DNA of 64,000 bases from a bacterium (GCA_021813145.1 JAKALS010000001.1:134519-198518); one strand, 5' to 3'; positions 7,969 through 42,291 are shown, counted from the first letter of the stretch. Numbers and translations are program-made. The notes: generated by a model not told the origin, from the sequence alone.

Positions 7969-8445
7969 TTACTTAATGTGTCTTGAGACTCCAAGCTCAA
8001 GAATAGAGGCCATTCTAGCGCCTGTTTCGGCGTCTTGTCCCATTATTGCCGTAAGAAGTACCGGCAATCTTATATCGTGGGGAATCCTATCGCGTATGGC
8101 AATCCCAACGGCGGCTTTTCTTAAATACATATTTCTTTCCCAGCTTTCCCGTTTGGTCATTTCGGCAAGGTCTATAAGGTCTTCCGGGGGAAGAGTCAGG
8201 GAATCAGGTTCTGAAATCTGCTTTTGTAGTTCAAGCATAAGCATACGCATCTCATATTGCCTCGGATGTATTTTTGCAAGCATTTCGTAGTCATATCTGT
8301 TTTCCTGCGGAGGTAAAATCTTTATTTCTTCGTATCGGTTTGCATAAAGAATAGAACCTTCAATGGCTTTATGTGGGGCAAAATTGAGAGAATCCATCTT
8401 TTCAAGACTTTCTATAAGCTCCCTGAAGGGGTTTCTTTCTATCAT
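7969..8445 (-). CDS. Hypothetical cytoplasmic protein
   Basis: 158-aa ORF with normal composition; no recognisable motif. Confidence 0.4.
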   Translation of the reverse strand: MIERNPFRELIESLEKMDSLNFAPHKAIEGSILYANRYEEIKILPPQENRYDYEMLAKIHPRQYEMRMLMLELQKQISEPDSLTLPPEDLIDLAEMTKRESWERNMYLRKAAVGIAIRDRIPHDIRLPVLLTAIMGQDAETGARMASILELGVSRHIK

Positions 8446-8466
8446 AAAGGGGAATTATAGCACTTT

Positions 8467-11062: not shown

Positions 11063-11656
11063 TCAGTGTCCTTGAGGGATAATTTTGTGCACCACGGTAT
11101 TTAATGCCGTGTTGTTTGCAAAAGCGCTTTGGTAAATTACTCTCTGTTCGGGTTGAGGTCTATTTATTACTATCCCATTCCATACTTCGGCAATGGGATT
11201 ATTGCTTCCTAGTTCCAAAAAATCCGTTTGTATTATAAACCTGCCGGTGTATTCTCCGGACCTTAACCTGTAAATATTGTTTATGGCCCTTACCATAGTG
11301 TTTTCATAGGGTTTCAGGCTACCCGGTACATTATGGGAGGGTCTTAAGATAACCATATTGTCGCGGTGCACGGGCACAGAACTTACTAACGCATGTCTAA
11401 AAATTGCCTCAAATTTTGAGTCGAGTCTTTCGTACGGCAAAAAATAACACCTTCTTTTATAAGGAAATATGATGGAATTTCCCCCGTTGGGATTTTTTGT
11501 CAAATCCGCCTGGAAGAGTACCCTAGAAGCCTCAAACTCCTGGAAAAGAAGATATTCTTTTCGGAAACGTTCGGTTTCCAAACCTCTTAAGGCTATTTCC
11601 TGCTCCAACGTTAAACTTTCGAACCTGGGGGTTCGCCTGCCGTTTTCCAAAGACAT
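11063..11656 (-). CDS. Hypothetical protein, paralog family F2 (with 12332..12874)
   Basis: Shares the MSLEN/MGLEN N-terminus and the C-terminal PIAEVWNG...PQPEQRVIY block with PLADVWYG...QEPQPRINY of 12332..12874. Confidence 0.45.
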   Translation of the reverse strand: MSLENGRRTPRFESLTLEQEIALRGLETERFRKEYLLFQEFEASRVLFQADLTKNPNGGNSIIFPYKRRCYFLPYERLDSKFEAIFRHALVSSVPVHRDNMVILRPSHNVPGSLKPYENTMVRAINNIYRLRSGEYTGRFIIQTDFLELGSNNPIAEVWNGIVINRPQPEQRVIYQSAFANNTALNTVVHKIIPQGH

Positions 11657-11702
11657 ACAAATTGCGATTATAACAAATATCTCCTAAGTGTCAATTAGCT
11701 TG

Positions 11703-12335: not shown

Positions 12336-12874
12336 TTATAATTAATACGGGGTTGAGGTTCCTGTCCTTTCTTTTTTTTGGAATTAATAAACTTCATGCT
12401 TTTGCCGTACCAAACATCGGCAAGAGGGAAAGCGGAATCTTCGGGGGAAAAGTACCTCACGTATTCAATCTTTCTCAAGATTCCGTCTCCGTTTCTTTTT
12501 AAAGGATATGTCGTGATTTCCGCCGTGATTTCTCTTCCCGCAAAAGCTTGAAGTATTTGCGGAAGTTCTTCCGAAGGTCCTAAAAGCAGGTTTTCATTCT
12601 TTTTAGTAAAGTCATTTAAAGGCCTGTCGACGTAATCTCTTACTATTCTTCCAAATATAAAACCAAAATTACCGTATGGAACCTCAAGACTCTCCCCTCT
12701 TTTTTTATAATCAATAACAAGCGGAGTTATCTCCGGAATAAAACCCGCGGAAAAAATTACCATGTCTTCTCCACCGGCAAATTTTTTTACATTTTGGCGG
12801 AATTCAAGTTCGATTTCGCTTTTTGAAAGCTCTATTCTTTGCAGTTGAAGCTTTTCAACATTTTCCAAGCCCAT
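12332..12874 (-). CDS. Hypothetical protein, paralog family F2
   Basis: See 11063..11656; 4-nt overlap with the downstream gene. Confidence 0.45.
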   Translation of the reverse strand: MGLENVEKLQLQRIELSKSEIELEFRQNVKKFAGGEDMVIFSAGFIPEITPLVIDYKKRGESLEVPYGNFGFIFGRIVRDYVDRPLNDFTKKNENLLLGPSEELPQILQAFAGREITAEITTYPLKRNGDGILRKIEYVRYFSPEDSAFPLADVWYGKSMKFINSKKKKGQEPQPRINYK

Positions 12875-12978
12875 AAATAGGGATTATACCAAAAATATAA
12901 TATCCTTATCAATTCTATAGGATAGTTATTTGACAATGGGAATTCTATGTCGCAAAATAAAATTAAAGGTAGGAAAAT

Positions 12979-17854: not shown

Positions 17855-18503
17855 GACCTCTTACGGTCGAAAATAGCGGTCTTTCGTCGGGAAAATCTCT
17901 GTCTATTTTATTCCTGAGTCTTCTTATCAGTACTTCTATTATATTGCTCATGGAATCATACGAATAATCCCACACGTGGTTTAATATCTGTTCCCTTGTG
18001 AGTATCTGGTTAGGATAATGCATAAAGTATTCCAAAAGGGAGTACTCTTTTCCGGTAAGGGATATTTCCCTGCCGTGTCTTTTTACAATATGTGATTCGG
18101 GGTCTAGCTCGAGATTGTCTACGGAAAGTTTTGTCCCTTTTATCGTAGAGCGGCGTATCAGCGCTCTAATTCGCGCCAGAAGCTCTTCAAATGAAAAAGG
18201 TTTTACAAGATAATCATCTGCACCGTGTTTAAAGCCTGATATTTTGTCGTCGAGAGTATCTTTTGCGGTAAGCATTAGTATGGGAGTCAGTACTTTTTCA
18301 TCTCTTAATTTTTCGCATATAGTTATCCCATCCATCTCCGGAAGCATGATGTCGAGGATTATTGCGTCGTAATTCTCGGTTGCGGCAATTTCGTATCCCT
18401 CCCTACCGTTTGCAACCGTATCGACCGCAAAATTTTCGTCGATAAGGCCCGTTTTTAAGTTATCGGCAAGCATCTTTTCGTCTTCTATCAAAAGGATTCT
18501 CAT
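17817..18503 (-). CDS. OmpR-family response regulator
   Basis: MRILLIEDEKMLADNL...ILDIMLPEMDG...; C-terminal winged-helix with ...RGLGYRL. Confidence 0.9.
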   Translation of the reverse strand: MRILLIEDEKMLADNLKTGLIDENFAVDTVANGREGYEIAATENYDAIILDIMLPEMDGITICEKLRDEKVLTPILMLTAKDTLDDKISGFKHGADDYLVKPFSFEELLARIRALIRRSTIKGTKLSVDNLELDPESHIVKRHGREISLTGKEYSLLEYFMHYPNQILTREQILNHVWDYSYDSMSNIIEVLIRRLRNKIDRDFPDERPLFSTVRGLGYRLGVQNEKA

Positions 18504-18531
18504 GTTGGAGTATTATACCATTTAATTAGTC

Positions 18532-30462: not shown

Positions 30463-32418
<1,956 letters not shown>

Positions 32419-32626: not shown

Positions 32627-33142
32627 TTACCGTTTGAGATATTTTTTAAATTCTTTTTGTCTTTCTTCTTTTGTCATTGAAAGTGCCCGATCCCAAGCAA
32701 TCCAATGAGGGTTTATTGGATCATTACTAATGGATTTTTCAAATTCTACTTCTTTCTTTGCAAATTTTTCTCCGTAAAGTTGTGTCCAAATTTCATATAA
32801 AATTAAGTAGACCAATTTGTGTGCTTCAAGGTCAAAATTTTTTTCGGTTATTCTTCCTTTGAGCTTTATGTTGTTACCTACCAACAACCGGTGACAGAGT
32901 TCGTGAACAATAGTTCCCCTCTTATCCTCTAAAGAGAGATTTGATTGAAACCTTAAGGGTCCTGAAAATGAAATTCCTCCGTATGTTACAGCATTTATAA
33001 TTTTTTCCTTGAATTTTAAACCACTTATTTTTTCGATTGTTTTTACAATCCTCTCTCCTTCTTCTTTCCAAATTCCGGCATATTCTTTAGCGGCCTCTTC
33101 ATATTCAGGCATATCATAAGAGGGGTAAAAGTTAATTTGCAT
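32627..33142 (-). CDS. Small HExxH-motif protein
   Basis: GTIVHELCHRLL carries an HExxH motif; the local motif resembles that of 29339..30205. Confidence 0.4.
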   Translation of the reverse strand: MQINFYPSYDMPEYEEAAKEYAGIWKEEGERIVKTIEKISGLKFKEKIINAVTYGGISFSGPLRFQSNLSLEDKRGTIVHELCHRLLVGNNIKLKGRITEKNFDLEAHKLVYLILYEIWTQLYGEKFAKKEVEFEKSISNDPINPHWIAWDRALSMTKEERQKEFKKYLKR

Positions 33143-33251
33143 AAGCTGAGTATATCACTTAAGAGAAATCACAAGTGCTCTAATGATTCGAATCATAGTG
33201 TCACATTTTTAAAAGGGGTTTTGATAAGCATTAACCGGAGTTGTTTTTGTT

Positions 33252-33551
33252 TTAAGTTTTTGAGGCGTTTATCTTTTTTATTTCTGTCATTGCTCCGCGT
33301 ACTATAAACTGGCCCGTATGAATTGTCTCTACAGGATGTTCAGACATAATAACCCCTGTTTGGGTAATTGCTACTCCGTCTTCTCCTTCAAAGTCGAGTC
33401 TTCCCCAGCTTTTTACAATAACAGCCGATGTTGCCGGCTTTTCTCCCTGATATGCAAAATGGTCGCGCCAAGTAACCTCCACGATGTCTCCGGGGACCGG
33501 TCTTAAGGCAGAAATTCTTCTTTCACGAAATGCTTCTTGTTGAATAGCCAT
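33252..33551 (-). CDS. Hypothetical protein
   Basis: 99-aa ORF; no motif recognised. Confidence 0.35.
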   Translation of the reverse strand: MAIQQEAFRERRISALRPVPGDIVEVTWRDHFAYQGEKPATSAVIVKSWGRLDFEGEDGVAITQTGVIMSEHPVETIHTGQFIVRGAMTEIKKINASKT

Positions 33552-33672
33552 TAGCGTAGAGGGATAGAAGGATTATATTAGAAAGATATTTTAAGTGCAA
33601 TAGTTATAAGCTTTGTTAATTCTTACTCTTTTTTCATAATAAAAAGTTATTATTGTCGGGAAAGGAGAAAAT

Positions 33673-33834
33673 ATGCAGGAACATAAACCCGAATATGAAA
33701 AAGGAAAACCTCCTCCGCCTCCCCCGCGGGAAGTTCCTTCTTATATAATGAAGGAGCTTTTGGAGATAAGAGAAAAACTGGGAAGGCTCGAAGGCATGGT
33801 AGAGGTTTTGCTGAAGATAAGTAAAGAGCAATGA
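33673..33834 (+). CDS. Small protein (53 aa) with a hexaproline run, translationally coupled to the downstream methyltransferase
   Basis: AAAGGAG at 33661-33667, ATG at 33673. Translation is MQEHKPEYEKGKPPPPPPREVPSYIMKELLEIREKLGRLEGMVEVLLKISKEQ*. The stop overlaps the next ATG (ATGA). The antisense track ORF 33634..33831 is judged spurious. Confidence 0.45.
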   Translation: MQEHKPEYEKGKPPPPPPREVPSYIMKELLEIREKLGRLEGMVEVLLKISKEQ

Positions 33835-34277
33835 AAAAGTATTTGCAAGAGCCGCCTACTCTTTTTGTTTCGACTTTTATAATTGAGGTTTTTCTCCATT
33901 TTTATTTTCCTATCGCAAGAATAATTCCTTTGCAGTTTAAAGATACAGGAATTATTGTTGTTTTGTTTGCCGTTGTTCTTTCTCTTTGGCAGTTTTTTAC
34001 GATGAACGGGAAAACCCCTATTCCCTACTGGAATAAACCCAGAAAGCTGATTACTTCGGGACCCTTCCGTTTTACAAGAAACGCCTTTTACTTAAGTATT
34101 GTGCTTATTAATTTTGGAGTTGCGGTTTATCTTACTTCCCTGTCTCCGTTTATAGCGGTAGTTATAGCATTCATCATTTTTAATAATTATTTTATTCCTA
34201 AAGAAGAAAAAGTCCTCGAGAACACATTAGGTAAAAACTATCTGGATTATAAAAAGAGAGTCCGCAGATGGATTTAA
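33831..34277 (+). CDS. ICMT/PEMT-family membrane methyltransferase
   Basis: ...LITSGPFRFTRNAFYLS... is the typical isoprenylcysteine carboxyl methyltransferase family motif. Confidence 0.6.
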   Translation: MKKYLQEPPTLFVSTFIIEVFLHFYFPIARIIPLQFKDTGIIVVLFAVVLSLWQFFTMNGKTPIPYWNKPRKLITSGPFRFTRNAFYLSIVLINFGVAVYLTSLSPFIAVVIAFIIFNNYFIPKEEKVLENTLGKNYLDYKKRVRRWI

Positions 34278-34873
34278 TAATCGAGATCGTGTCCGTGTTT
34301 GGGGCTTGCAGAATGAATTTTTACTCCCGATGCTTCTCCAACTTTTTCTAGTTTTTGGGGCCTTCGTCTTATCAGGGAAGTTGTCGGATTTACGTTTCCT
34401 TCCCTTGATATTCCTACAGGCATGAAGAATTCTTCACCCTGTTTATTTGCAATTAAGGCTAAGCCTTGAAGAAAACTTTTTGCATCAATGCTGCTTCCTC
34501 CAATTCCTTCTATGGCTACAAGCAGACCCTCGCGTACAGGAGAATTGTCCAATTGGACTCTTAAGGTTCTATTTTTTTCAATAACCTCATCCAATATTCC
34601 TTTGCCTTGTCCTGCAATAGCAACCCCAAATTCAATCATGCCTGCTACGACCGTATCTCCGTGTTCTTCCATTGAAATTGCCGTGTTTATGTCAAAATCG
34701 GAATCGTGGGGAAAAGTTTGTAATAAATAATGTGCGGCAATAGCGAGCCTCCTCTTATTTGCCGCAATTTCGGTTTCCCTTTCCACCGGCCTGACTGCAG
34801 GATTTTTTTTATCTGGAAATTTTTCTACTAATGACATAGGCGCGATACTACTCTTGTTGGGGGTGAAAGTCAA
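34274..34873 (-). CDS. Hypothetical protein
   Basis: 199-aa ORF; no motif recognised. Confidence 0.4.
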   Translation of the reverse strand: MTFTPNKSSIAPMSLVEKFPDKKNPAVRPVERETEIAANKRRLAIAAHYLLQTFPHDSDFDINTAISMEEHGDTVVAGMIEFGVAIAGQGKGILDEVIEKNRTLRVQLDNSPVREGLLVAIEGIGGSSIDAKSFLQGLALIANKQGEEFFMPVGISREGNVNPTTSLIRRRPQKLEKVGEASGVKIHSASPKHGHDLDY

Positions 34874-35026
34874 CTATAGGGCGTATGTATTCCCTTTACT
34901 TTATAAACGTTGTGTTTTTCATCCTCCGACTTCACACCCCTCCCAGGCGTTATGGCCTCATACCTAGTCGCTTAGGGTCTAGCTTTATGAACCTTACAAA
35001 CTATATAACTTTATAAACTATCCTAG

Positions 35027-35383
35027 TTACCTTTTTGCCCTTTGAGGAAGAGTGGGTTCCCACCTTAATTTATACGTGCTGTTTATTTCATATTTTTTCC
35101 CGAATTCCGTTATTTCCCTTTTATGTAATTCTCTTTCCGAAATCGTTTTTCCCAAACGGTCTTTTTGTGTTACCTTAACTTTATCCTCAGAGGTTACTCT
35201 TAAAGTTGCAGGTATAGGATAAGGCAGTGGGAGTGTCCCATTCTCTAGGGCTGAATAAAATTGCTCATCCGTCATCCTTTCCTGATAATGTATATTTTCT
35301 TCTGTCCCGGGTTCTAAAACTATTCCTCTTCTTACATTTCCAAAAACGGGAACATGGACTTCGTAAATATATTTAACTGTCAT
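35027..35383 (-). CDS. Hypothetical protein
   Basis: 118-aa ORF. Confidence 0.35.
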   Translation of the reverse strand: MTVKYIYEVHVPVFGNVRRGIVLEPGTEENIHYQERMTDEQFYSALENGTLPLPYPIPATLRVTSEDKVKVTQKDRLGKTISERELHKREITEFGKKYEINSTYKLRWEPTLPQRAKR

Positions 35384-35598
35384 AGTGGCCTATTATACCA
35401 TTACAGGCTAAATTAGCCTTTTCTTGCGGCTTTTGAATGTAATGAAGGGCGGACTGAGTCGTAGGCCTCTTTGAGTTCTTCTTTTACAATAGTCGGACTC
35501 CAACTATTGCGAAGGAATAAGAACAATGGGAAAACCCGTGCTTTTTGGCAAAATCTTTTATAAAGAAGCCTTAATAGTGCAGGAACCTTTGAACAAAT

Positions 35599-35934
35599 TT
35601 AGGCGACATCATCAGGGTCGGCTGTTTCTGTTTTTCTATAAAGAAATATTCTATGCGGTTTGCTGCTCCCCCTTTTTTCTATCAGGGCTGTCCTACAGCG
35701 GATATCACCATTTCTTTCCATCTGTATAAGACTCAGGTAAATGATTTCAGGTTCCAGGGCTTTTTCGGCAAGGCCTAACGGATAAAGCTCCGTAACTCTT
35801 TTTCTTATTTCATAACCCGTTACTTCGGTTCTTCCCTCCCCGCTTAGAGATTCAATGGCATCCAGAACTTTAGGTCTTATCTGTTGGGTTGATTTTTGTA
35901 CCATGCTTTCAAGGTTTCTTATAAGCCGTTCCAC
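35599..35934 (-). CDS. Small winged-helix-like protein, paralog family A (copy 1 of 3)
   Basis: RPKVLDAIESL...IIYLSLIQMERNGDI...KPHRIFLYRKTE aligns with copies at 37068..37391 and 39644..39952. Confidence 0.45.
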   Translation of the reverse strand: MERLIRNLESMVQKSTQQIRPKVLDAIESLSGEGRTEVTGYEIRKRVTELYPLGLAEKALEPEIIYLSLIQMERNGDIRCRTALIEKRGSSKPHRIFLYRKTETADPDDVA

Positions 35935-35986
35935 ATCTTAATTATAGCATTGAACAAAGCTCTATAGCTTGCTATAATCCCAAATT

Positions 35987-36313
35987 ATGGCGATTGAGAG
36001 CAGGCCGGAACAAGCTTCGAACGAGGCTTTTGAGAAGGCACCGCTTAAACTGGGCGCGGGTGTAATTCTCATGGAAGGGGTAGGGGGAGAGGCTTACTCC
36101 GTATATCTTGCCTGGAAAGCAGCGAAAGAAGTAAATCAGGCTACCTATTCTCTGGTTCAAGGAAGAGAACATGCATTTGACGCTTCGCTTGCACAGGTAA
36201 AAAAAGATGCGACAAGCGCTTTTGTGGGAGGAGCTCTTCTCAGTCCTTCGTTTGTTATTTTGGGGCTTGCAATTTTAAACAAGTTGACTGCTTCTTCGAG
36301 AAGAAATTCTTAA
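35987..36313 (+). CDS. Hypothetical Ala-rich protein with a C-terminal hydrophobic segment
   Basis: 108-aa ORF; converges on and overlaps 36310..36579 by 4 nt. Confidence 0.3.
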   Translation: MAIESRPEQASNEAFEKAPLKLGAGVILMEGVGGEAYSVYLAWKAAKEVNQATYSLVQGREHAFDASLAQVKKDATSAFVGGALLSPSFVILGLAILNKLTASSRRNS

Positions 36314-36579
36314 GTTCTTCTTTTTTTGAGTTTCTCTCTTTTTTCTACAGGTAATCTTTCTACCCTACCTGTTAGATGATACTCCAGAAGTTCGGATGCA
36401 TGATATACCGCTTCCTTTTCATTTATTCCCATAAGCTTGTGGTTAAGAAGAGCGTTAAGTCCAGAGCACAATGCTTCCCTTCTTAATTCCTGCTGTTCCT
36501 TGGTTAAAGCATTAAATTCCGGGGTTCCCCTCTCCATTGATTCAAGATTTTTCATTGGGCGGATTATACCACCTATCAT
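36310..36579 (-). CDS. Small protein, family B (shares the C-terminal ..YHLTGRVE with 39952..40188 ..KHLTGER)
   Basis: MIGGIIRPMKNLESMERG... N-terminus also resembles 40458..40778 MSSGMFINIIPSMEILRG. Confidence 0.35.
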   Translation of the reverse strand: MIGGIIRPMKNLESMERGTPEFNALTKEQQELRREALCSGLNALLNHKLMGINEKEAVYHASELLEYHLTGRVERLPVEKREKLKKRRT

Positions 36580-36633
36580 TTCAGAATTTAAGTTATTGAT
36601 TTTTACTTTTTTTGTGTGATATAAACCGAACTT

Positions 36634-37071
36634 ATGGGAGAAAGATTATCTTCTGCCCGATTCGAACAAGATCCGGAAATCCAAAGAGAAATTCAACTTC
36701 ATGAAGTCCTGCAAAAAAGAGGACTAGCTATTTGCTCTTCAGAAGAACATTCCTGTGACAGTCCTATTTCCCTTTCAGATGCCGTTCTTATTTTTGAAAG
36801 GGAAGTTTTTCCTCAGAATTATAAAAATCCTGAGAATTTGGAAAGAACAAGGTTTGAGGTTCTTTGCCCCAAACATGCAAGACTTGAGGATCAGTATCTA
36901 AAACCGACGGGTACGCCATGGTATGGAGACAATGTAAGAAGCGAAGTTATTGAAGTTGAAGGAAGGTTTGTAAGAAAAATAGACGGAAAAATCGTACGCG
37001 GAACGCCTGTTCAAGGAAAACCTTCGGAAGAACTTTTTAACAGATTCGGAATTTCTCCTGCTGTCCATTAA
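36634..37071 (+). CDS. Hypothetical protein
   Basis: 145-aa ORF with protein-like composition; the antisense 72-aa ORF is judged spurious. Confidence 0.3.
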   Translation: MGERLSSARFEQDPEIQREIQLHEVLQKRGLAICSSEEHSCDSPISLSDAVLIFEREVFPQNYKNPENLERTRFEVLCPKHARLEDQYLKPTGTPWYGDNVRSEVIEVEGRFVRKIDGKIVRGTPVQGKPSEELFNRFGISPAVH

Positions 37072-37391
37072 CTCTCCCTGTCCTCGGGATTGCTTCTTTG
37101 GTACCTGTAAAACCATCTTCCAGTTGGGTCTTCAAGGTTAGGCCTGTAAATCCCTTTTAGTGCTCCCGATTCCCTCATTCTTTCCAGTGCAATATAAACT
37201 TTATATTCCGGAACATTAATTATTTTGGGATCAAGGGACTTCATGGCTTCCAATATTAGATTGGGTGTTGTAGGTAAATCTCTTGCATTTAAAGCATCTA
37301 TTGCATCAAGTACTCCCGGCTTAAGAGCGTCTACCCCATTTAGTCTGTCCGATAGTTTTTGCGACAAATTATTCAGTCTTTCGTTAAACAT
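37068..37391 (-). CDS. Small winged-helix-like protein, paralog family A (copy 2)
   Basis: KPGVLDAIDALNARDLPTTPNLILEAMKSLDPK...YKVYIALERMRESGAL...RWFYRYQ. Confidence 0.45.
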   Translation of the reverse strand: MFNERLNNLSQKLSDRLNGVDALKPGVLDAIDALNARDLPTTPNLILEAMKSLDPKIINVPEYKVYIALERMRESGALKGIYRPNLEDPTGRWFYRYQRSNPEDRES

Positions 37392-37459
37392 GAAGAGGAA
37401 TTATAGCACACAAGCTTTATGTTTGCTTTTAAAATAGGTTTAGTGTATAAGAAAATTTA

Positions 37460-38200
37460 ATGGGCAAGAAAATAATTGCTGTAATGCCTGCCTATAATGC
37501 AGAGAAAACTCTGGAAAAAACCTACAAAGATGTCCCCAAAGGTCTGATTTCCGAATTTATCCTTGCAGACGATAAAAGCTCCGATAGAACAGTGGAAATA
37601 GCAAAAAAACTTGGGCTTACCGTTATTTCACATAAAAATAATACGGGGTACGGCGGAAATCAGAAGACTTGTTATAAAGAAGCTTTAAAAAGAAACGCTG
37701 ATATCATTGTAATGATACATCCCGACTACCAGTATGACAGTTCCCTTACGCAGGATTTAGTGTCTCCCATAGAAAAAGGAAGATTTGACATAATGTTCGG
37801 AAGCAGAATAAGAACAAGACGCGAAGCTTTAGACGGAGGTATGCCTTATATAAAATACCTTATAAACAGGATCATGGCTTTGGTTGAAAATTTAATTCTT
37901 GGTGTAAACTTTACGGAACATTTCAGCGGATTTAGAGCATACTCGGCTGAGGTTTTAAAAATCCTTCCCTTTAATGATTTCAGTGACGATTTTGTTTTTG
38001 ATCAGGAATTAATGATTTCGGCGATTGCCTATGGCTTTAAAATAAGTGAATATCCTGTTCCCGTAAGGTATTTTTCCGAGAGTTCTTCTATACAATTTTT
38101 AGCCGGGAGTAAATTTTTACTTGAAACCATACGTACTCTCTTTTTATTTATACTTTTAAAGCTTAGAATATATAAAAGCAGGATATTTAATTTTAAGTAA
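37460..38200 (+). CDS. GT2 glycosyltransferase (polyprenol-phosphate sugar synthase, Dpm1/ArnC-like)
   Basis: IIAVMPAYNAEKTLEKT...ILADDKSSDRT...; the DxD-containing GT-A fold. Confidence 0.8.
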   Translation: MGKKIIAVMPAYNAEKTLEKTYKDVPKGLISEFILADDKSSDRTVEIAKKLGLTVISHKNNTGYGGNQKTCYKEALKRNADIIVMIHPDYQYDSSLTQDLVSPIEKGRFDIMFGSRIRTRREALDGGMPYIKYLINRIMALVENLILGVNFTEHFSGFRAYSAEVLKILPFNDFSDDFVFDQELMISAIAYGFKISEYPVPVRYFSESSSIQFLAGSKFLLETIRTLFLFILLKLRIYKSRIFNFK

Positions 38201-39417
38201 TGAAATTTATTATAAAAAACTCAAGGCTCATAATTTTTTTGGGCCTTTTGATATTCTCCGTAATTTCATCGGTCCTGATAATGTCTGTTGCCAACAGGCA
38301 TGTCTATGACTATCACCTTTCGCTTCTCGCTTATCAGTTCTCAAGACTGCATTTGGCCATACCGCCATTGGATGTGCCTTACGGAGATGTAGTAAATTTC
38401 CATAGCACTTTTTATCTTTATTTCGGACCGCTTGCTTCCATAATCCTTGCGCCTTTTACAGTAATTTTCGGGAAATATTTTCCCCAAGTTCTTCTGGGAA
38501 TCGGCTCGATGATAGCTTCCTTTTTCATTGTTTACTCTATTTCAAAAGCTTATAAGTTTAAAAAAGAAGATTCTTTACTCCTTGGTCTTTTCTTTGTTTT
38601 TTCAACCGTATTATTCGGAGTAGGGATAATAAATATAAGCGCCTACCAGGTTCAGGCTCTTGGAGTTCCTTTTGTCCTTTTGGCAATAAGGGAATATCTT
38701 TTAAAAAAAAGACCTTTACTGATAGGAATTTTTATAGCACTTGCAATACTGACACGAGTGACTCTTTTGTTATCCGTAGTTTTTTTCTTTATCGAATTTT
38801 TATACAAGAGAATTTCATTAAAGAACTTTGTATTGATTATGATTCCAATTGTTATCTCCGGTATGATATTGGCAGGTTACAACTATAGAAGATTTCATTC
38901 TTTTACCGAAACCGGGTATGCCTACAATCAAACATTAAATACATTCCCAATGTCTTCAAATTTAAAAGCAGGTTTTTTCAGCGTTGCCCACGTTCCTGCA
39001 AATTTATACAGTTTTTTGATTATGCCACCGGATCCTGTTGTAAGAGGTGGCGGTGGTTTTGTATTAGATTTTCCCTATCTTAAGGCGAATCCCTGGGGAA
39101 TGGCAATCTGGTTTACTTCCCCGCTCTTTTTATTATTATTGTTTAAATTCAAAAAGGATAAATTTTCGGTTTCTGCAGCTTTGGCCGCCTTTGCTCTTGC
39201 AATTCCGTCTTTTATTTATTTTGGAGTAGGGTTTTCCCAGTATGGGTACAGATATGCTTTGGATTTCCTCCCTTTCCTTTTTATGCTTCTTCTCTCATCT
39301 CTTTCGCCAAAACTTTCTAAAACTGCAGTAACTTTAATAGCGATAGGAGTGATCTTTAATTGCCTTTATATGGCAAGCCTTTGGAACAGTTATCCTATTT
39401 TCGGAATTTTTAGATAA
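38200..39417 (+). CDS. GT-C membrane glycosyltransferase (PMT/ArnT-like, GT39/83 family)
   Basis: 405 aa, about 11 TM helices, immediately after and overlapping the GT2 gene (ATGA). Confidence 0.5.
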   Translation: MKFIIKNSRLIIFLGLLIFSVISSVLIMSVANRHVYDYHLSLLAYQFSRLHLAIPPLDVPYGDVVNFHSTFYLYFGPLASIILAPFTVIFGKYFPQVLLGIGSMIASFFIVYSISKAYKFKKEDSLLLGLFFVFSTVLFGVGIINISAYQVQALGVPFVLLAIREYLLKKRPLLIGIFIALAILTRVTLLLSVVFFFIEFLYKRISLKNFVLIMIPIVISGMILAGYNYRRFHSFTETGYAYNQTLNTFPMSSNLKAGFFSVAHVPANLYSFLIMPPDPVVRGGGGFVLDFPYLKANPWGMAIWFTSPLFLLLLFKFKKDKFSVSAALAAFALAIPSFIYFGVGFSQYGYRYALDFLPFLFMLLLSSLSPKLSKTAVTLIAIGVIFNCLYMASLWNSYPIFGIFR

Positions 39418-39419
39418 TT

Positions 39420-39647
39420 TTAGCTGGGGATTACATTTTTGTTGGCTCTTCCGAAATGGCCCGATTTCTGGAACAACCAGACCGCAATTTCCGTATCTCT
39501 TAGTTCTCTCGAGCTTAAATTCTTTTTAAGTCCGTTCCTGAATGGGTGGTCCATAAGTATTCTTGAAAGCGCAAATCCGAAATGCCGAGCGTCTTTTTCA
39601 CTCACATCTCTTAATGTAACCTGTCTCGGGTTTTCAATCCATGTCAT
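39420..39647 (-). CDS. Small protein downstream of family A copy 3
   Basis: 75-aa ORF overlapping the upstream gene by 4 nt. Confidence 0.3.
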   Translation of the reverse strand: MTWIENPRQVTLRDVSEKDARHFGFALSRILMDHPFRNGLKKNLSSRELRDTEIAVWLFQKSGHFGRANKNVIPS

Positions 39648-39952
39648 ATTTGCTTCTCCAATGGAGCCCTTCTATAAACATATTGATTTCTTTCTTTACC
39701 AGGCTGGTGAATTTCTTCGCTTCTTAAGACACCGTTTTCCTCCAGTCTTTCAAGAGCTATTTCTATTGCTAAAGGCTGAACATGACCCATATCCGGATTT
39801 AAACTTTTGACTGCTTCGGTAACTATATTGCAGGTTGTAGGAAGTCCGATTCGGGAAAGCTCATCTACTGCCTGTAATACCTCGGGTTTTAATTTATCTA
39901 TTCCGCTTACTCTGTCTACAAAGGAATCTGCGAGTTTATAAAGCCTTTCCAT
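39644..39952 (-). CDS. Small winged-helix-like protein, paralog family A (copy 3)
   Basis: KPEVLQAVDELSRIGLPTTCNIVTEAVKSLNPD...AIEIALERLEENGVLRSEE...YVYRR. Confidence 0.45.
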   Translation of the reverse strand: MERLYKLADSFVDRVSGIDKLKPEVLQAVDELSRIGLPTTCNIVTEAVKSLNPDMGHVQPLAIEIALERLEENGVLRSEEIHQPGKERNQYVYRRAPLEKQI

Positions 39953-40188
39953 TATCTTTCTCCCGTTAGATGTTTTATAGCAAGTCTTTGCATGTCATAT
40001 TCCGAATAGCTTCGGATAATGTCGAAGATTACTATTTCCTGTTGATACTGTTTCCTATATTTATGATTTTGCAAGTCTATTGAAGATAAGGCGATGTGGA
40101 TAGAATTCTCTCTTTGCAGTTTTGCTCTTTTTTGCCATACGTAATGTTCGCTCCTTAAAAGTCCGTAAGCCCTTAATTTTTCCATCAT
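39952..40188 (-). CDS. Small protein, family B
   Basis: 78 aa ending ...AIKHLTGER; 1-nt overlap with the downstream A copy. Confidence 0.35.
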   Translation of the reverse strand: MMEKLRAYGLLRSEHYVWQKRAKLQRENSIHIALSSIDLQNHKYRKQYQQEIVIFDIIRSYSEYDMQRLAIKHLTGER

Positions 40189-40216
40189 GCGATTATATCA
40201 AAATTATAATTTTGTC

Positions 40217-40420
40217 TCATTTTCTAAAAAGTTCTCTTACGTTTCTTTGAGAAAGAGCCCCATCCTCTCCCCATCCCGGATTCATTGCGTCTTCTATTGT
40301 AAAACTATAAATAACTTCACCTGTTCCTCCGTCAAGAATATCCTGTTCGGCTGCTGTTTTTTGCATAAGTTGCCTATTTTCCTCCCATATTACAAGATGA
40401 CTGTTTAAATTTTCCTTCAT
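40217..40420 (-). CDS. Small hypothetical protein
   Basis: 67-aa ORF in the same minus-strand operon. Confidence 0.3.
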   Translation of the reverse strand: MKENLNSHLVIWEENRQLMQKTAAEQDILDGGTGEVIYSFTIEDAMNPGWGEDGALSQRNVRELFRK

Positions 40421-40457
40421 ATTTTAATCGGTAAACCTTTTTTATTGCAGAGGAAAT

Positions 40458-40778
40458 TTATTCCTGTCTTTGTGCGGGAGGTACGAGGAGTTCGCTTAAC
40501 CTCTGCGCGTCGAATATGTCCTCTTCTCTTTGACTTTTTAGTTGAATTAGTTCGAGTTGCCCTTCTACGAATTGAGCCGAGAGTTGCGTTCTCATGCCGT
40601 CAGTGATTTCCTGAGGAACAGTTTCCGCTCCGTCCAAAAGCCTGAGGCCCAGTCTTGCCAGTCTGGTTTTCGATCTTGCCATTCTCATCCTTTCGTCAAT
40701 TATCTGCCGCTCTATACTTTTAGCCCCTCTTAGAATTTCCATTGAAGGGATTATATTTATAAACATACCGCTTGACAA
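40458..40778 (-). CDS. Hypothetical protein (first gene of the minus-strand small-gene operon)
   Basis: 106-aa ORF. Confidence 0.35.
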   Translation of the reverse strand: MSSGMFINIIPSMEILRGAKSIERQIIDERMRMARSKTRLARLGLRLLDGAETVPQEITDGMRTQLSAQFVEGQLELIQLKSQREEDIFDAQRLSELLVPPAQRQE

Positions 40779-40799
40779 TATATCGCCAAGTGATATAAT
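40772..40799 (+). promoter_or_regulatory. Consensus sigma70-like promoter for padR with leaderless geometry
   Basis: TTGACA (40772-77), a 16-nt spacer, TATAAT (40794-99), then ATG at 40806. Confidence 0.5.
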
Positions 40800-40805
40800 T
40801 CGCGT

Positions 40806-41171
40806 ATGAACAGTAAAACAATAGAAACTATTTCTCCTCAGGTACTTTATATTCTTTTAGCCCTAGCGGTAAAAGAAAGACACGGTTACGAAATAATGAA
40901 GCAGGTTAAAGCGGATTCGGACGGAAAAGTTATTATGGGTCCCGGGACTTTATACGGCGCAATTAAAAGAATGCTTAAGAACGGCTGGATTAAAGAGGCC
41001 GGAGAAAAAGACAGAAGAAAATATTATTCGCTTACTGAACTTGGAAGGAAAAATCTCTCGGTAGAACTTCAAAGGTACGAGGAAATGCTTGAAAAAGCCA
41101 GAAAGAAAAATCTTTTGGGGAATCCGGTAACGGCCAAGTTTGCATTTTCATATGTTAGAAAATCTTTATAA
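40806..41171 (+). CDS. PadR-family transcriptional regulator
   Basis: ...QVLYILLALAVKERHGYEIMKQV...GPGTLYGAIKRMLKNGWIKE...RRKYYSLTELG. Confidence 0.8.
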   Translation: MNSKTIETISPQVLYILLALAVKERHGYEIMKQVKADSDGKVIMGPGTLYGAIKRMLKNGWIKEAGEKDRRKYYSLTELGRKNLSVELQRYEEMLEKARKKNLLGNPVTAKFAFSYVRKSL

Positions 41172-41787
41172 AAAGCTTCTTTCTTGTTATCCCCTTAACT
41201 ATAAGAGAAAATTCGGGAAAGAAATGCTTTTAATCATAAACGATTTAAAACGTGATGAGCTTAGGGAAAAAGGAAGGATAAAGTTCTCTTTCTGGGCATT
41301 CCAATATAGTGATGTTTCCAAAAGCCTTTTTTCGGAACATATAGATTTCCTTAATAAAAGCGGTTTTAGAAAGTATTTTAAACTCAATAACTTTAATATT
41401 ATCGGAGGCGTTTTAATGCTTCCCGCTTTCACCGTTTTTATGATTGATATTTTAGGAAGAATTGCTCAGGGTGACCTTACGCACTACAATAGGGGAATTT
41501 ATAATTTTCTTTCCCACACTCCCCTATACTGGACGCCTGTTTTATTTACCTGGATAATTGCTTTTCCCGCAATTGCCATCATTTTGAATATAATCTCCGT
41601 CCTTAAAAACAGAAATAACAGGGTTTTTGTCAGAAAGAATTATGCTTCTTTTTTAATTCTTTTTTTTGGTTTGTTTTTGCTTTTTCTTGTAAAGTTCCAC
41701 GATTTTGCACCGTGCTTTGTCCACGGACTTTTTCTAAAAGGCTTCGGAAATCTTAATTTGATAATCGGTGTGTGCTCCAAAGCATGA
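41140..41787 (+). CDS. PadR-associated membrane protein
   Basis: Four or five TM helices; overlaps the padR 3' end, a typical PadR operon partner. Confidence 0.45.
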   Translation: MHFHMLENLYKKLLSCYPLNYKRKFGKEMLLIINDLKRDELREKGRIKFSFWAFQYSDVSKSLFSEHIDFLNKSGFRKYFKLNNFNIIGGVLMLPAFTVFMIDILGRIAQGDLTHYNRGIYNFLSHTPLYWTPVLFTWIIAFPAIAIILNIISVLKNRNNRVFVRKNYASFLILFFGLFLLFLVKFHDFAPCFVHGLFLKGFGNLNLIIGVCSKA

Positions 41788-42291
41788 TTGAAATTTTTAG
41801 CCTCTCCGGTTATAATCTTGCGAATAATGGAACGAGGAAAATCAAGAGAAGAAAAAGCTAAAGAGTACGCACAACTGTCGGGAATTATTTCTAAAATAAT
41901 ACGGGAGAGTTTGTCGCAGTCTCTTGCCGGATTAAATGGATTAAGGATGCAGCATATTCCACTTGGAGACAAGATGATTACCGAAAGCTTTTCCCCCTCG
42001 AATAATCATGTAACGCTTGGAGCCTGGTTTATGGAGGAAGGCAGCCAACAGGCAATGACTTACCATTTAAACGGGACTGCGGATGTTCTAAAAGGAGGAG
42101 TCATATACGACTTAAGCGATGAAGCCACGATTGTTATTTTTGACAACAACAGACAATCCAAAGAAGGGCAGACGGTTAAGCCCATGATACGGGTAGATCT
42201 TGAGGAATTGAGGATATTAGCAAAAATCGCCGAAAACCCCGCGGAGAATAAAGAGCTTTTGGATAAACTTAAAAAACTTCCCCTAAATTGA
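41788..42291 (+). CDS. Hypothetical protein
   Basis: 167-aa ORF. Confidence 0.35.
   Translation: MKFLASPVIILRIMERGKSREEKAKEYAQLSGIISKIIRESLSQSLAGLNGLRMQHIPLGDKMITESFSPSNNHVTLGAWFMEEGSQQAMTYHLNGTADVLKGGVIYDLSDEATIVIFDNNRQSKEGQTVKPMIRVDLEELRILAKIAENPAENKELLDKLKKLPLN

Follow-up and report, generated by a model that had tools for sequence, protein, structure and literature searches.

The region between positions 34874 and 40805 of the window (the whole 64,000-nt stretch of bacterial DNA analysed here) is, with a probability of roughly 55%, a species-restricted cluster of small genes rather than a multi-component system with fixed partners. The best reading is one of species-restricted genes, ordinary for Patescibacteria, that include a locally duplicated PadR-like family; the cluster bears no mark of a new system for defence or addiction. 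Across both strands, it holds 11 small ORFs (67-145 aa), a glycosyltransferase (GT2) gene and a gene for a 405-aa membrane protein. An initial annotation of this DNA had given about 14 small ORFs, in this size range and on both strands. The genes and sequence signals of the region and its edges are:

34274..34837, minus strand: 187-aa orphan; the ORF reaches TTG 34873, the likely start is ATG 34837
34898-34908 and 35008-35018, no strand: direct repeat ACTTTATAAAC, two copies, upstream of the 187-aa gene
35027..35383, minus strand: 118-aa orphan, own leaderless transcription unit (TGGTATAAT + 8 nt + ATG)
35405..35419, no strand: perfect palindrome (7-1-7) AGGCTAAATTAGCCT; the extended -10 of the 118-aa gene lies 4 nt downstream of it
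35599..35934, minus strand: A1, predicted winged-helix protein of 111 aa, remotely paralogous to A2 and A3; starts with GTG behind a leaderless promoter
35941..35978: back-to-back extended -10s of A1 (35949..35941, minus) and the 108-aa gene (35970-35978, plus), 20 bp apart
35987..36313, plus strand: 108-aa orphan, divergent from A1; TGCTATAAT-N8-ATG; codon score 0.37
36310..36555, minus strand: B1, 81-aa orphan, not related to B2; the ORF reaches 36579
36634..37071, plus strand: 145-aa orphan, convergent with A2, stops overlapping by 4 nt; codon score 0.27
37068..37391, minus strand: A2, predicted winged-helix protein of 107 aa; monocistronic and leaderless, transcribed away from the GT2 operon
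37460..38200, plus strand: GT2, glycosyltransferase of the polyprenyl-phosphate-sugar-synthase type; conserved, outside the orphan set
38200..39417, plus strand: multi-pass membrane protein of 405 aa, in one transcription unit with GT2 (the two share ATGA 38197-38200)
39420..39647, minus strand: 75-aa orphan, last gene of the B2-A3-75 operon; basic, pI 10.5
39644..39952, minus strand: A3, predicted winged-helix protein of 102 aa, middle of the B2-A3-75 operon
39952..40185, minus strand: B2, 77-aa orphan, first gene of the B2-A3-75 operon; leaderless
40199..40214, no strand: CAAAATTATAATTTTG, 16 bp, perfectly palindromic, sharing bases with the extended -10 of the B2-A3-75 promoter
40217..40420, minus strand: 67-aa orphan, acidic (pI 4.6); follows the 94-aa gene in the 94-67 unit; codon score 0.31
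40458..40742, minus strand: 94-aa orphan, divergent from padR; the ORF reaches 40778 (106 aa); codon score 0.14
40771..40790, no strand: imperfect palindrome CTTGACAATATATCGCCAAG, from one base before the padR -35 to just before its extended -10
40806..41171, plus strand: padR, canonical PadR-family regulator, plausibly leaderless; marks the cluster's right edge

The small ORFs are real genes under constraint, not frame artefacts. Public gene callers call every ORF of the set, and by codon usage each called island ORF ranks top among its six frames. Codon scores lie between 0.20 and 0.37 in eight of the 11 small ORFs (training mean 0.29), including the 118-aa gene (0.21, rank 1). Lower scores are found for B2 (0.02, the weakest in the island, yet its best frame), the 75-aa gene (0.07, weak, yet again the best frame) and the 106-aa ORF (0.14). 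The 187-aa gene, also 187 aa long in public records, scores 0.26, the best of six frames. Comparison with a divergent strain (contig L109) shows purifying selection on A2 (dS 0.82, dN 0.038, dN/dS 0.05) and on the 145-aa gene. In the latter, a strain recombination breakpoint lies near 36900; codons 1-89 are almost identical, and codons 90-145 give dS 0.78 and dN 0.16 (ratio 0.21). The 108-aa gene carries two synonymous and zero non-synonymous strain SNPs. On the refuting point named in the initial annotation, that the partner ORFs might lack conservation or look like frame artefacts, the answer is mixed: relatives in other genomes are missing, but the partners are real, constrained genes.

The expression signals are compact. 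Seven perfect extended -10 promoters lie in the island, 6-8 nt ahead of start codons, and these are of the same type as those of housekeeping genes elsewhere in the window. The motif TGNTATAAT occurs 14 times against 2.9 expected; 11 of these lie ahead of the starts of ORFs 77 aa or longer, seven of them within the island, and TGNTATAAT-N8-ATG is found six times against 0.02 expected. The A1 promoter reads TGCTATAAT + 6 nt + GTG. The B1 start at 36555 is promoter-supported (TGGTATAAT + 7 nt + ATG; codon score 0.22), and B2 starts at its second ATG (40185; TGATATAAT + 6 nt + ATG). The 94-aa gene has a TTGTCA-17-TATAAT promoter that ends 7 nt ahead of ATG 40742, and a promoter-like TTGACT-17-TAGTAT ends 7 nt ahead of ATG 34837 of the 187-aa gene. 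A1 and A2 are monocistronic, each with a promoter to itself; among the A genes only A3 sits in an operon, where 1 nt is common to the B2 stop and the A3 start, and 4 nt to the A3 stop and the 75-aa start. Of the 3'-end overlaps reported earlier, those at 36310-36313 and 37068-37071 are 4-nt overlaps of convergent stops; at 39417-39420 there is instead a 2-nt gap.

The 11-bp direct repeat described at the left edge is present in exactly two copies (0.06 expected), each with the palindrome TTTATAAA inside it. The spacer carrying them has an ordinary RNA fold (z +0.4) and no match in Rfam. Three further palindromes may be operators, judged from their sequence and position. AGGCTAAATTAGCCT, which was additionally picked up as a terminator-like plus-strand hairpin, is a candidate operator; CAAAATTATAATTTTG, with a single exact copy in the window and near-matches at chance level, is a candidate autoregulatory operator; and CTTGACAATATATCGCCAAG, which shares bases with the -35 of the divergent 94-aa promoter as well, is a candidate PadR operator. 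No operator motif common to the three A promoters emerged; the palindromes are single occurrences, and the short motifs tried were defined post hoc.

A1-A3 form a locally duplicated, highly divergent family. The three had been described as clear paralogs, which holds for A2 and A3 (43% identity, E 6e-24; dN/dS about 0.28, with dS saturated); A1 is only a distant third member. Its pairwise BLASTP matches reach E 0.001 only, it ranks third among 742 window ORFs with an A2+A3 HMM (E 8e-4), and Smith-Waterman scores against shuffles give z 8.2 (with A3) and 5.6 (with A2). An N-terminal 'ERL' motif is common to all three. In structure models, built on alignments of two to three sequences, the family fold is a winged helix; the AF2 model of A1 (pLDDT 79) has the topology H-H-H-hairpin, and its best Foldseek matches include PadR, RTP and BlaI. 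The proposed local expansion of a winged-helix-like module is therefore borne out, the fold being seen on two A models with Foldseek.

Among bacterial structural matches, PadR-family repressors recur most, and the winged helix-turn-helix of the A models superposes on solved PadR structures. In hhalign, of 14 neighbours none but the PadR protein of the window aligns with the A family: 60 columns are in register at P 0.0025, with a probability of only 12%, and the other 13 give P of at least 0.069. The match spans helix 1 (P-x-VL) and the recognition helix (Y-x-AL-x-R-M/L-x-x-x-G). None of A1, A2 and A3 matches a PadR profile at Pfam E <= 1 or NCBIfam E <= 0.1. On these models and alignments, the PadR family appears to be the nearest structural and local sequence relative, with a weak sequence link. 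Whether the family belongs to a well-known regulator class, a point on which the initial annotation made its proposal depend, thus receives a mixed answer: it maps to the winged-helix/PadR kind at fold level only.

The recurring partner families did not materialise. B1 and B2, proposed as copies of one 'family B', give no BLASTP alignment at E <= 100 and a shuffle z of 0.6; for the 106-aa protein (40458..40778), whose N-terminus had been likened to theirs, z is 0.2 with B1 and 0.8 with B2. HLTGR, taken for the C-terminus of B1, is followed by 18 more residues. Outside the A family, no two island proteins are related, though the eight small proteins concerned may still act jointly. An A-B-C triad cannot be recognised, as the partners are dissimilar and the neighbourhoods of A1, A2 and A3 differ, nor can an addiction or defence architecture be built on fixed partners when partner families do not exist and A1 and A2 stand alone. 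None of the 11 small proteins matched a family in Pfam, NCBIfam, PHROGs (sub-threshold matches only) or PADLOC, the 118-, 75- and 67-aa proteins included, and family databases likewise gave no match for the 187-aa protein. The 108-aa protein is probably membrane-anchored, judging by a C-terminal hydrophobic segment (19-residue hydropathy maximum of 2.17 at residue 79).

The conserved genes fared as follows. The GT2 assignment is confirmed (PF00535, E 5e-20); NCBIfam places the protein near AglJ, dolichyl-phosphate hexose transferase and PpgS-like models, all under cut-off, and relatives 49-76% identical occur in 80 genomes of many phyla. The 405-aa protein had been called PMT-like, for which searches of Pfam, NCBIfam and PDB sequences gave no match. 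Its orthologues (44-45% identical) adjoin GT2 in two Patescibacteria genomes (L015 and L068), and it is probably the glycosyl-transfer partner of GT2. The padR product matches PF03551 (E 4.8e-17). Its divergent position, as annotated, is confirmed, and leaderless expression is plausible because a 12/12 sigma-70 promoter with TG ends 6 nt before its ATG.

In the proposed mode of action, nearly every island gene would be its own transcription unit, with a leaderless mRNA made from a consensus extended -10 promoter 6-8 nt ahead of the start codon. The PadR-like A family probably regulates adjacent promoters; dimers of A proteins would bind at sites overlapping these compact promoters and so cause repression or autoregulation. 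A2 would act on the back-to-back promoters of A2 and the GT2-membrane-protein operon, that is, on envelope glycosylation. A1 may act on the back-to-back promoters it shares with the 108-aa membrane-protein gene, and perhaps also on the palindrome ahead of the 118-aa gene. The target of A3 would be the 16-bp palindrome overlapping its own B2-A3-75 promoter.

Several other explanations have to be weighed. It is hardly credible that the small ORFs are non-coding clutter, chance frames or gene-caller artefacts. All of them lack homologues, and coding scores are low in B2, the 75-aa and the 94/106-aa gene, but every small ORF scores above its five alternative frames, consensus promoters are placed exactly at the starts, selection or synonymous-only SNPs mark A2, the 145-aa and the 108-aa gene, and protein-level conservation spans the old A2/A3 duplication; for A1-A3 and the 108-, 118- and 145-aa genes this reading is already refuted. 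A decayed mobile element, prophage or horizontally acquired genomic island is very unlikely and largely refuted, even if dense small genes lacking known function on both strands, the direct repeat at the left edge and the breakpoint between strains might suggest one. The repeat copies are merely 110 bp apart, within one spacer; no integrase or recombinase, tRNA or flanking long repeats were found at the island; its promoters resemble those of housekeeping genes of the window; and a contrast in composition is absent, GC (0.38-0.41) being that of the flanks and codon usage native. IMG/VR, GenBank phages and plasmids hold no relatives of the small genes, and PHROGs matches are sub-threshold. Searches elsewhere were similarly empty. 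An A2+A3 profile run against 1.84 billion (1.84e9) representative proteins recovered A2 and A3 alone, A2 and A1 matched nothing but themselves in word-index searches, and each 90% cluster consists of copies or near-identical variants from this one population. No homologues of the small ORFs occur in 80 GT2-anchored genome loci or 24 holB-anchored metagenome loci, and no A-B-C sets co-occur in other genomes, the small genes being found nowhere else sampled.

A novel toxin-antitoxin or abortive-infection cassette, with B2-A3-75 as an autoregulated addiction or defence module, is improbable, though less so. A3 would then be the DNA-binding antitoxin or regulator, the basic 75-aa protein or B2 the effector, and A1 and A2 related orphan regulators or immunity factors. 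The translationally coupled three-gene operon (1-nt and 4-nt overlaps), the perfect palindrome over its promoter, the basic 75-aa protein (pI 10.5) and B2 (pI 9.7) beside an acidic A3, and the mosaic strain-level divergence inside the cluster would fit. Such cassettes normally spread horizontally, however, and homologues are absent from other genomes, phages and plasmids; codon usage and GC are native, the partners are not repeated beside A1 or A2, and the weakest coding scores are those of B2 and the 75-aa gene. Pfam (E <= 1) revealed no RelE/ParE, MazF, PIN, HicA, Doc, GNAT, Fic or other known toxin family among the small ORFs, PADLOC-DB v2 (searched at E <= 0.1) gave chance-level matches only (E >= 0.019) and no core defence component, and PHROGs (E <= 0.1) added none; no component matches a defence or toxin model. 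A slightly better, still doubtful, case can be made for A proteins as winged-helix modules other than sequence-specific repressors, for example as adaptors between proteins or as small chromatin- or nucleoid-type binders like linker-histone winged helices. Their neutral to acidic pI and the lack of a detected common operator favour this, against which stand the recurrence of PadR repressors among bacterial structural matches, the in-register match to the local PadR alone, and the compact divergent or palindrome-bearing promoters at all three A genes.

Species-restricted genes with a PadR-like family remain the preferred reading, and the cluster can be set beside several known systems. PadR-family structures (VanR, Pex, CdPadR, Listeria and Brachyspira PadR) recur among the best structural matches of the A family, which has in common with PadR proteins the size of the short subfamily (PF03551; about 100-110 aa), a winged helix in which a beta-hairpin wing comes after a long recognition helix, and a location at divergent or autoregulated promoters. 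It differs in that its helical extension is N-terminal (residues 2-36 of the A2 model), the C-terminal dimerisation helix is missing from both models, where the chain stops a few residues past wing strand two, its members have a neutral to acidic pI (7.8, 6.3 and 5.4, against 9.9 for the local PadR), and relatives are confined to its own population. MarR, BlaI/MecI, the Fur DNA-binding domain, RTP, linker histone H5 and the SAMD1/KAT6A winged helix are unrelated in sequence and have effector or dimerisation domains of their own that A proteins lack. Like type II toxin-antitoxin modules, B2-A3-75 is small and translationally coupled, with a DNA-binding-type protein and a palindrome over its promoter; unlike them, it has three genes rather than two, matches no toxin or antitoxin family, is neither mobile nor widespread, and its arrangement is absent at A1 and A2. 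Genomic islands and prophages are recognised by a recombinase, tRNA/att repeats, compositional contrast or viral relatives, and the cluster shows none of these.

The host is probably a member of the Patescibacteria (CPR) with a Microgenomates-type chromosome, as judged solely from how the nearest relatives of GT2 and of the membrane protein are labelled. In this phylum, gene clusters of unknown function that are lineage-specific at species level dominate (45,788 of 54,343; PMC9132574) and make up the commonest class of unknown gene. The island genes resemble these in being small, unannotated, chromosomal and confined to one species-level lineage; what the island adds is expression signals, evidence of selection and, for three genes, a predicted fold.

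The interval 34874-40805 contains 11 small ORFs and a two-gene glycosylation operon. Independent public gene calls for the same contig (a 248-kb metagenome assembly) include all of the island genes.

Gene order in the island, from left to right, with strand in brackets.
Left block: 187-aa gene (-)
Left block: 118-aa gene (-)
Left block: A1, 35599..35934 (-), winged-helix paralog of 111 aa
Next block: 108-aa gene (+)
Next block: B1, 36310..36555 (-), small orphan
Next block: 145-aa gene (+)
Next block: A2, 37068..37391 (-), winged-helix paralog of 107 aa
Glycosylation pair: GT2, 37460..38200 (+), glycosyltransferase
Glycosylation pair: 38200-39417 (+), 405-aa membrane protein
Right block: 75-aa gene (-)
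Right block: A3, 39644..39952 (-), winged-helix paralog of 102 aa
Right block: B2, 39952..40185 (-), small orphan
Right block: 67-aa gene (-)
Right block: 94/106-aa gene (-)
Right edge: padR, 40806..41171 (+), divergent, PadR regulator

The density of small genes noted in the initial annotation is present, as is the 11-bp repeat ACTTTATAAAC (two copies against 0.06 expected); the copies lie 110 bp apart, both in the spacer upstream of the 187-aa gene. The reported overlaps of 3' ends hold in part: the convergent stops of 108-aa/B1 and 145-aa/A2 overlap by 4 nt, whereas 39417-39420 is a 2-nt gap. Genes without family assignment continue on both sides, at 32627-34277 (171, 99 and 53 aa) and at 41140-42291 (a 215-aa membrane protein after padR, and 154/167 aa), so that the borders of the ‘island’ are arbitrary. 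The sole break in this extended run is a PEMT-type methyltransferase.

The small ORFs are real genes; codon usage, promoter placement and selection between strains agree on this independently. A codon model built from 40 long window ORFs (training mean 0.29) scores each called small ORF above its five alternative frames, and eight of the 11 reach 0.20-0.37. The three lowest scores are 0.02 for B2, 0.07 for the 75-aa gene and 0.14 for the 94/106-aa gene; eight of the 11 shadow ORFs tested rank second or third, and none exceeds 0.05. Constraint is also visible in L109, a 787-bp contig from another sample that is near-identical to the window until ~36900 and ~19% divergent thereafter. For the final 62 codons of A2, dS is 0.82 and dN 0.038 (ratio 0.05); for codons 90-145 of the 145-aa gene, dS is 0.78 and dN 0.16 (ratio 0.21). 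In L107, another sequence compared with the window, three of four SNPs are synonymous and one is intergenic. The alternative that the short frames are non-coding clutter is effectively refuted.

The exact extended −10 element TGNTATAAT occurs 14 times in the window (2.9 expected), and 11 of them stand just ahead of an ORF of 77 aa or longer, with 6-10 nt between the element and the start codon. Of these 11, seven belong to the island, at the 118-aa gene, A1, the 108-aa gene, B1, A2, B2 and padR (sites 35392-35400, 35941-35949, 35970-35978, 36563-36571, 37400-37408, 40192-40200 and 40791-40799). The stricter form TGNTATAAT-N8-ATG is found six times in the window against 0.02 expected, and distinct −35 boxes are mostly absent. 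The same arrangement precedes genes elsewhere in the window (8445-8462, 12874-12891, 18503-18520 and 11656-11675, all (-)); it is therefore the organism's normal promoter architecture, apparently leaderless. The source genome appears to use leaderless mRNAs widely. For the padR gene, annotated from the outset as leaderless, this label is plausible: its promoter is a perfect 12/12 sigma-70 match (TTGACA-16-TATAAT with TG) ending 6 nt before the ATG. Back-to-back with it (40743-40806) is the 11/12 promoter of the 94-aa gene, and the two −35 hexamers overlap. Promoter position also refines the starts of B1 (36555, 81 aa), B2 (40185, 77 aa) and the ‘106-aa’ gene (40742, 94 aa). This leaderless extended −10 signature is the most reusable result of the analysis; with its consensus boxes 6-8 nt ahead of the start codons, it offers a way to assign starts in related genomes and to tell real small genes from shadow ORFs there.

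Promoter positions and overlaps indicate putative monocistronic units for A1, A2, B1 and the 118-, 187-, 108- and 145-aa genes, together with four predicted operons (GT2-membrane protein, 94-67, B2-A3-75 and padR-215-aa). From this layout, the three A genes have three different contexts. A1 is back-to-back with the divergent promoter of the 108-aa membrane-anchored protein, A2 is back-to-back with the divergent promoter of the GT2 operon, and A3 lies second in a set of three translationally coupled genes.

Comparing 17 local proteins all against all groups A1, A2 and A3 and reveals no other relationship. A2 and A3 share 43% identity (BLASTP E 6e-24); their synonymous sites are saturated (pS 0.70), with pN 0.41 and dN/dS about 0.28, and the pair reads as an old duplication held under protein-level constraint. 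A1 is far more distant, yet it belongs to the same family. An HMM of A2 and A3 places it third among 742 window ORFs (E 8e-4; the next ORF has E 0.65), its Smith-Waterman z values of 8.2 and 5.6 against A3 and A2 lie above all 200 shuffles, and the N-terminal M/V-ERL motif and the P-x-VLDA motif are common to all three proteins. The three paralogs are thus real. ‘Family B’ dissolves under the same treatment: BLASTP aligns no part of B1 with B2 at E <= 100, their Smith-Waterman z is 0.6, and the supposed resemblance of the 106-aa protein to B comes to z 0.2 and 0.8 against B1 and B2. As no related pair exists outside the A family, the premise of fixed recurring partners fails, and the proposed A-B-C system is set aside.

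The AlphaFold models of A1 (pLDDT 79) and A2 (pLDDT 81) agree. In each, one or two helices at the N-terminus lead into a helix, a long helix and a β-hairpin, which is the winged-helix fold anticipated in the initial annotation. Foldseek with the A1 model retrieves PadR-family structures, RTP, BlaI and Pex at E 0.002-0.1. A Foldseek search of viral structures yields only generic winged-helix matches (E at least 1.8e-3). Sequence searches with A1-A3 give no match beyond chance level in Pfam at E <= 1, or in NCBIfam, PHROGs or PADLOC at E <= 0.1, and a PDB profile search with the family returns nothing meaningful; for the small ORFs generally, searches of Pfam, PHROGs, PADLOC, NCBIfam and PDB sequences gave nothing usable. 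Overall, the paralogs, their fold, the gene density, the repeat and the leaderless padR stand; family B and recurring partners are missing, and an undescribed multi-component system is not supported. The suggestive ‘island’ becomes a defined, mostly ordinary object, consisting of real, constrained, independently transcribed orphan genes.

The distribution of these genes is very narrow. Against 1.84 billion representative proteins, an A2+A3 profile recovers only A2 and A3 as true members; three extra matches (E < 1e-3) are DUF4116-repeat or low-complexity proteins and were rejected as relatives. Word-index searches with A1 and A2 return only themselves. Clustered at 90% identity, the 11 small proteins and nine neighbouring genes are joined only by copies, alternative-start calls and near-identical strain variants of the same population. 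No homologue of any small ORF occurs in 80 GT2-anchored GTDB loci, and a holB-anchored metagenome scan found no syntenic relative, only a 1.5-kb contig (47% identity) and unrelated gut contigs. Four viral-contig scans and a tblastn search of A1 against GenBank phages and plasmids were equally negative. The island shows no GC or codon-usage contrast with its flanks, and no tRNA, integrase or bounding repeats. With neither outside relatives nor compositional or mobile marks, the genes are therefore native and restricted to a species or genus, and their reading as a mobile-element remnant is effectively refuted. Native genes of this kind are the commonest class of unknown genes in Patescibacteria, where 45,788 of 54,343 lineage-specific unknown clusters are found at species level (PMC9132574).

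The glycosylation pair is distributed differently. With GT2 as anchor, the nearest labelled relatives are Patescibacteria, Gottesman-, Beckwith- and Curtissbacteria and Microgenomates; the best GT2 anchor match (76%, L003) has a gene context different from that of the window. This L003 locus comes from a MAG labelled ‘Gammaproteobacteria’ with Patescibacteria-like flanks. GT2 also has 49-62% identity to proteins of Planctomycetota, Elusimicrobiota, Bacteroidota and other phyla. Very strong conservation of the enzyme, its transfer or a mislabelling of bins could each account for these matches. Across the 80 loci, the 405-aa protein is the only island gene that recurs beside GT2. This multi-pass membrane protein has no Pfam, NCBIfam or PDB sequence match, and orthologues of 44-45% identity adjoin GT2 in one Curtissbacteria and one other Patescibacteria genome (L015, 10744-11964; L068, 10742-11905). 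It probably represents an unclassified GT-C-like transferase family.

Strain comparisons reveal a mosaic. The shift in identity of L109 at ~36900 places a recombination breakpoint inside the 145-aa gene; over the compared region (window ~36900-37258), L109 also carries a 4-nt insertion that abolishes the 145/A2 stop overlap. In L110/L111 (window 37312-38464), GT2 differs at 23 sites (14 synonymous, nine non-synonymous), with no change from the window in the A2 N-terminus or the A2/GT2 spacer. Over the island, the 8-kb contig L002 has the same sequence as the window. Beyond ~7890 (window 32020-32083, gyrB) it has 20 mismatches in its last 60 aligned bases and then diverges fully; at this conserved gene, the assembly has joined sequence from different strains or species. 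Its SNPs, all in the chimeric end inside gyrB, were discarded as island strain variation.

The most likely function of the A proteins, to which we assign a probability of roughly 0.5, would be that of small dimers that repress or autoregulate the promoters next to them. Four sites are candidates for such binding.

Candidate A sites.
B2-A3-75 promoter: perfect 16-bp palindrome CAAAATTATAATTTTG, overlapping the extended −10
118-aa gene: 7-1-7 palindrome AGGCTAAATTAGCCT, just upstream of the −10
A1/108-aa gene: 20-bp interval between the two −10 boxes
A2/GT2: 32-bp interval between the two −10 boxes

The CAAAATTATAATTTTG site is the only exact copy in the window, and no motif common to the A promoters could be demonstrated. 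The padR promoter core holds the imperfect palindrome CTTGACAATATATCGCCAAG (40771-40790), the likely PadR operator, which shares bases with the −35 of the divergent 94-aa gene. Two further motifs were rejected as evidence of a shared operator, being post hoc and mostly inside genes: GTTTATAAA, with eight copies in the window against 2.4 expected (34900, 35010, 39934, 40756 and four elsewhere; half in or near the island), and AAGCTYTATR, with eight against 1.25 (35957, 37412 and six elsewhere in the window). The spacers have no Rfam match even at E <= 1, and their folding z values against shuffles are −2.25 (35384-35598) and +0.4 (34874-35026). A hairpin at ~35483-35507 (-), with an 11-bp stem CAAUAGUUGG...CCGACUAUUG ~100 nt 3' of the A1 stop and no U-tract, may be a non-canonical terminator. 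What remains is a short list of testable promoter-regulator pairs. If A proteins control the GT2/membrane-protein operon, this would constitute a lineage-specific switch of envelope glycosylation in an organism that is probably host-attached.

Other roles are less probable. The pI values of A1, A2 and A3 (7.8, 6.3 and 5.4) are low for DNA-binding proteins and call for caution, and the winged helix could have a non-DNA-binding role, although this is unlikely. Slightly more doubtful still is the idea that B2-A3-75 forms the core of a novel toxin-antitoxin or defence cassette. The coupling of these three genes, the palindrome at their promoter, the basic nature of the small partners and the strain mosaicism are all consistent with it, but positive family evidence and horizontal spread are both absent. 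Just as improbable is the broader proposal that the cluster is a fast-evolving, lineage-private conflict or host-interaction locus, in which the autoregulated B2-A3-75 genes would use a new winged-helix family in an unrecognised module of toxin-antitoxin or abortive-infection type and the other small genes would be effectors or immunity proteins. Were it true, such a role for these other leaderless, strongly promoted genes would explain the mosaic recombination between strains.

The regulatory reading of the A proteins draws its comparison from PadR. When the A family is aligned by hhalign with 14 neighbouring proteins, only the padR product aligns, at a low hhalign probability (60 columns, P 0.0025); helix 1 and the recognition helix fall in register, and the best of the others has P 0.069, over at most 16 columns. 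The label ‘PadR-like’ is used because the models are winged-helix and only PadR aligns among the neighbours. The A family adds a new member, restricted to this lineage, to the winged-helix regulators, and it is set among ordinary orphan genes. Unlike PadR, it has no PadR profile match and lacks the C-terminal dimerisation helix. The most fitting description is a PadR-like winged-helix family of very high divergence, which would act in the manner of a PadR-type regulator and is not classed as a PadR member.
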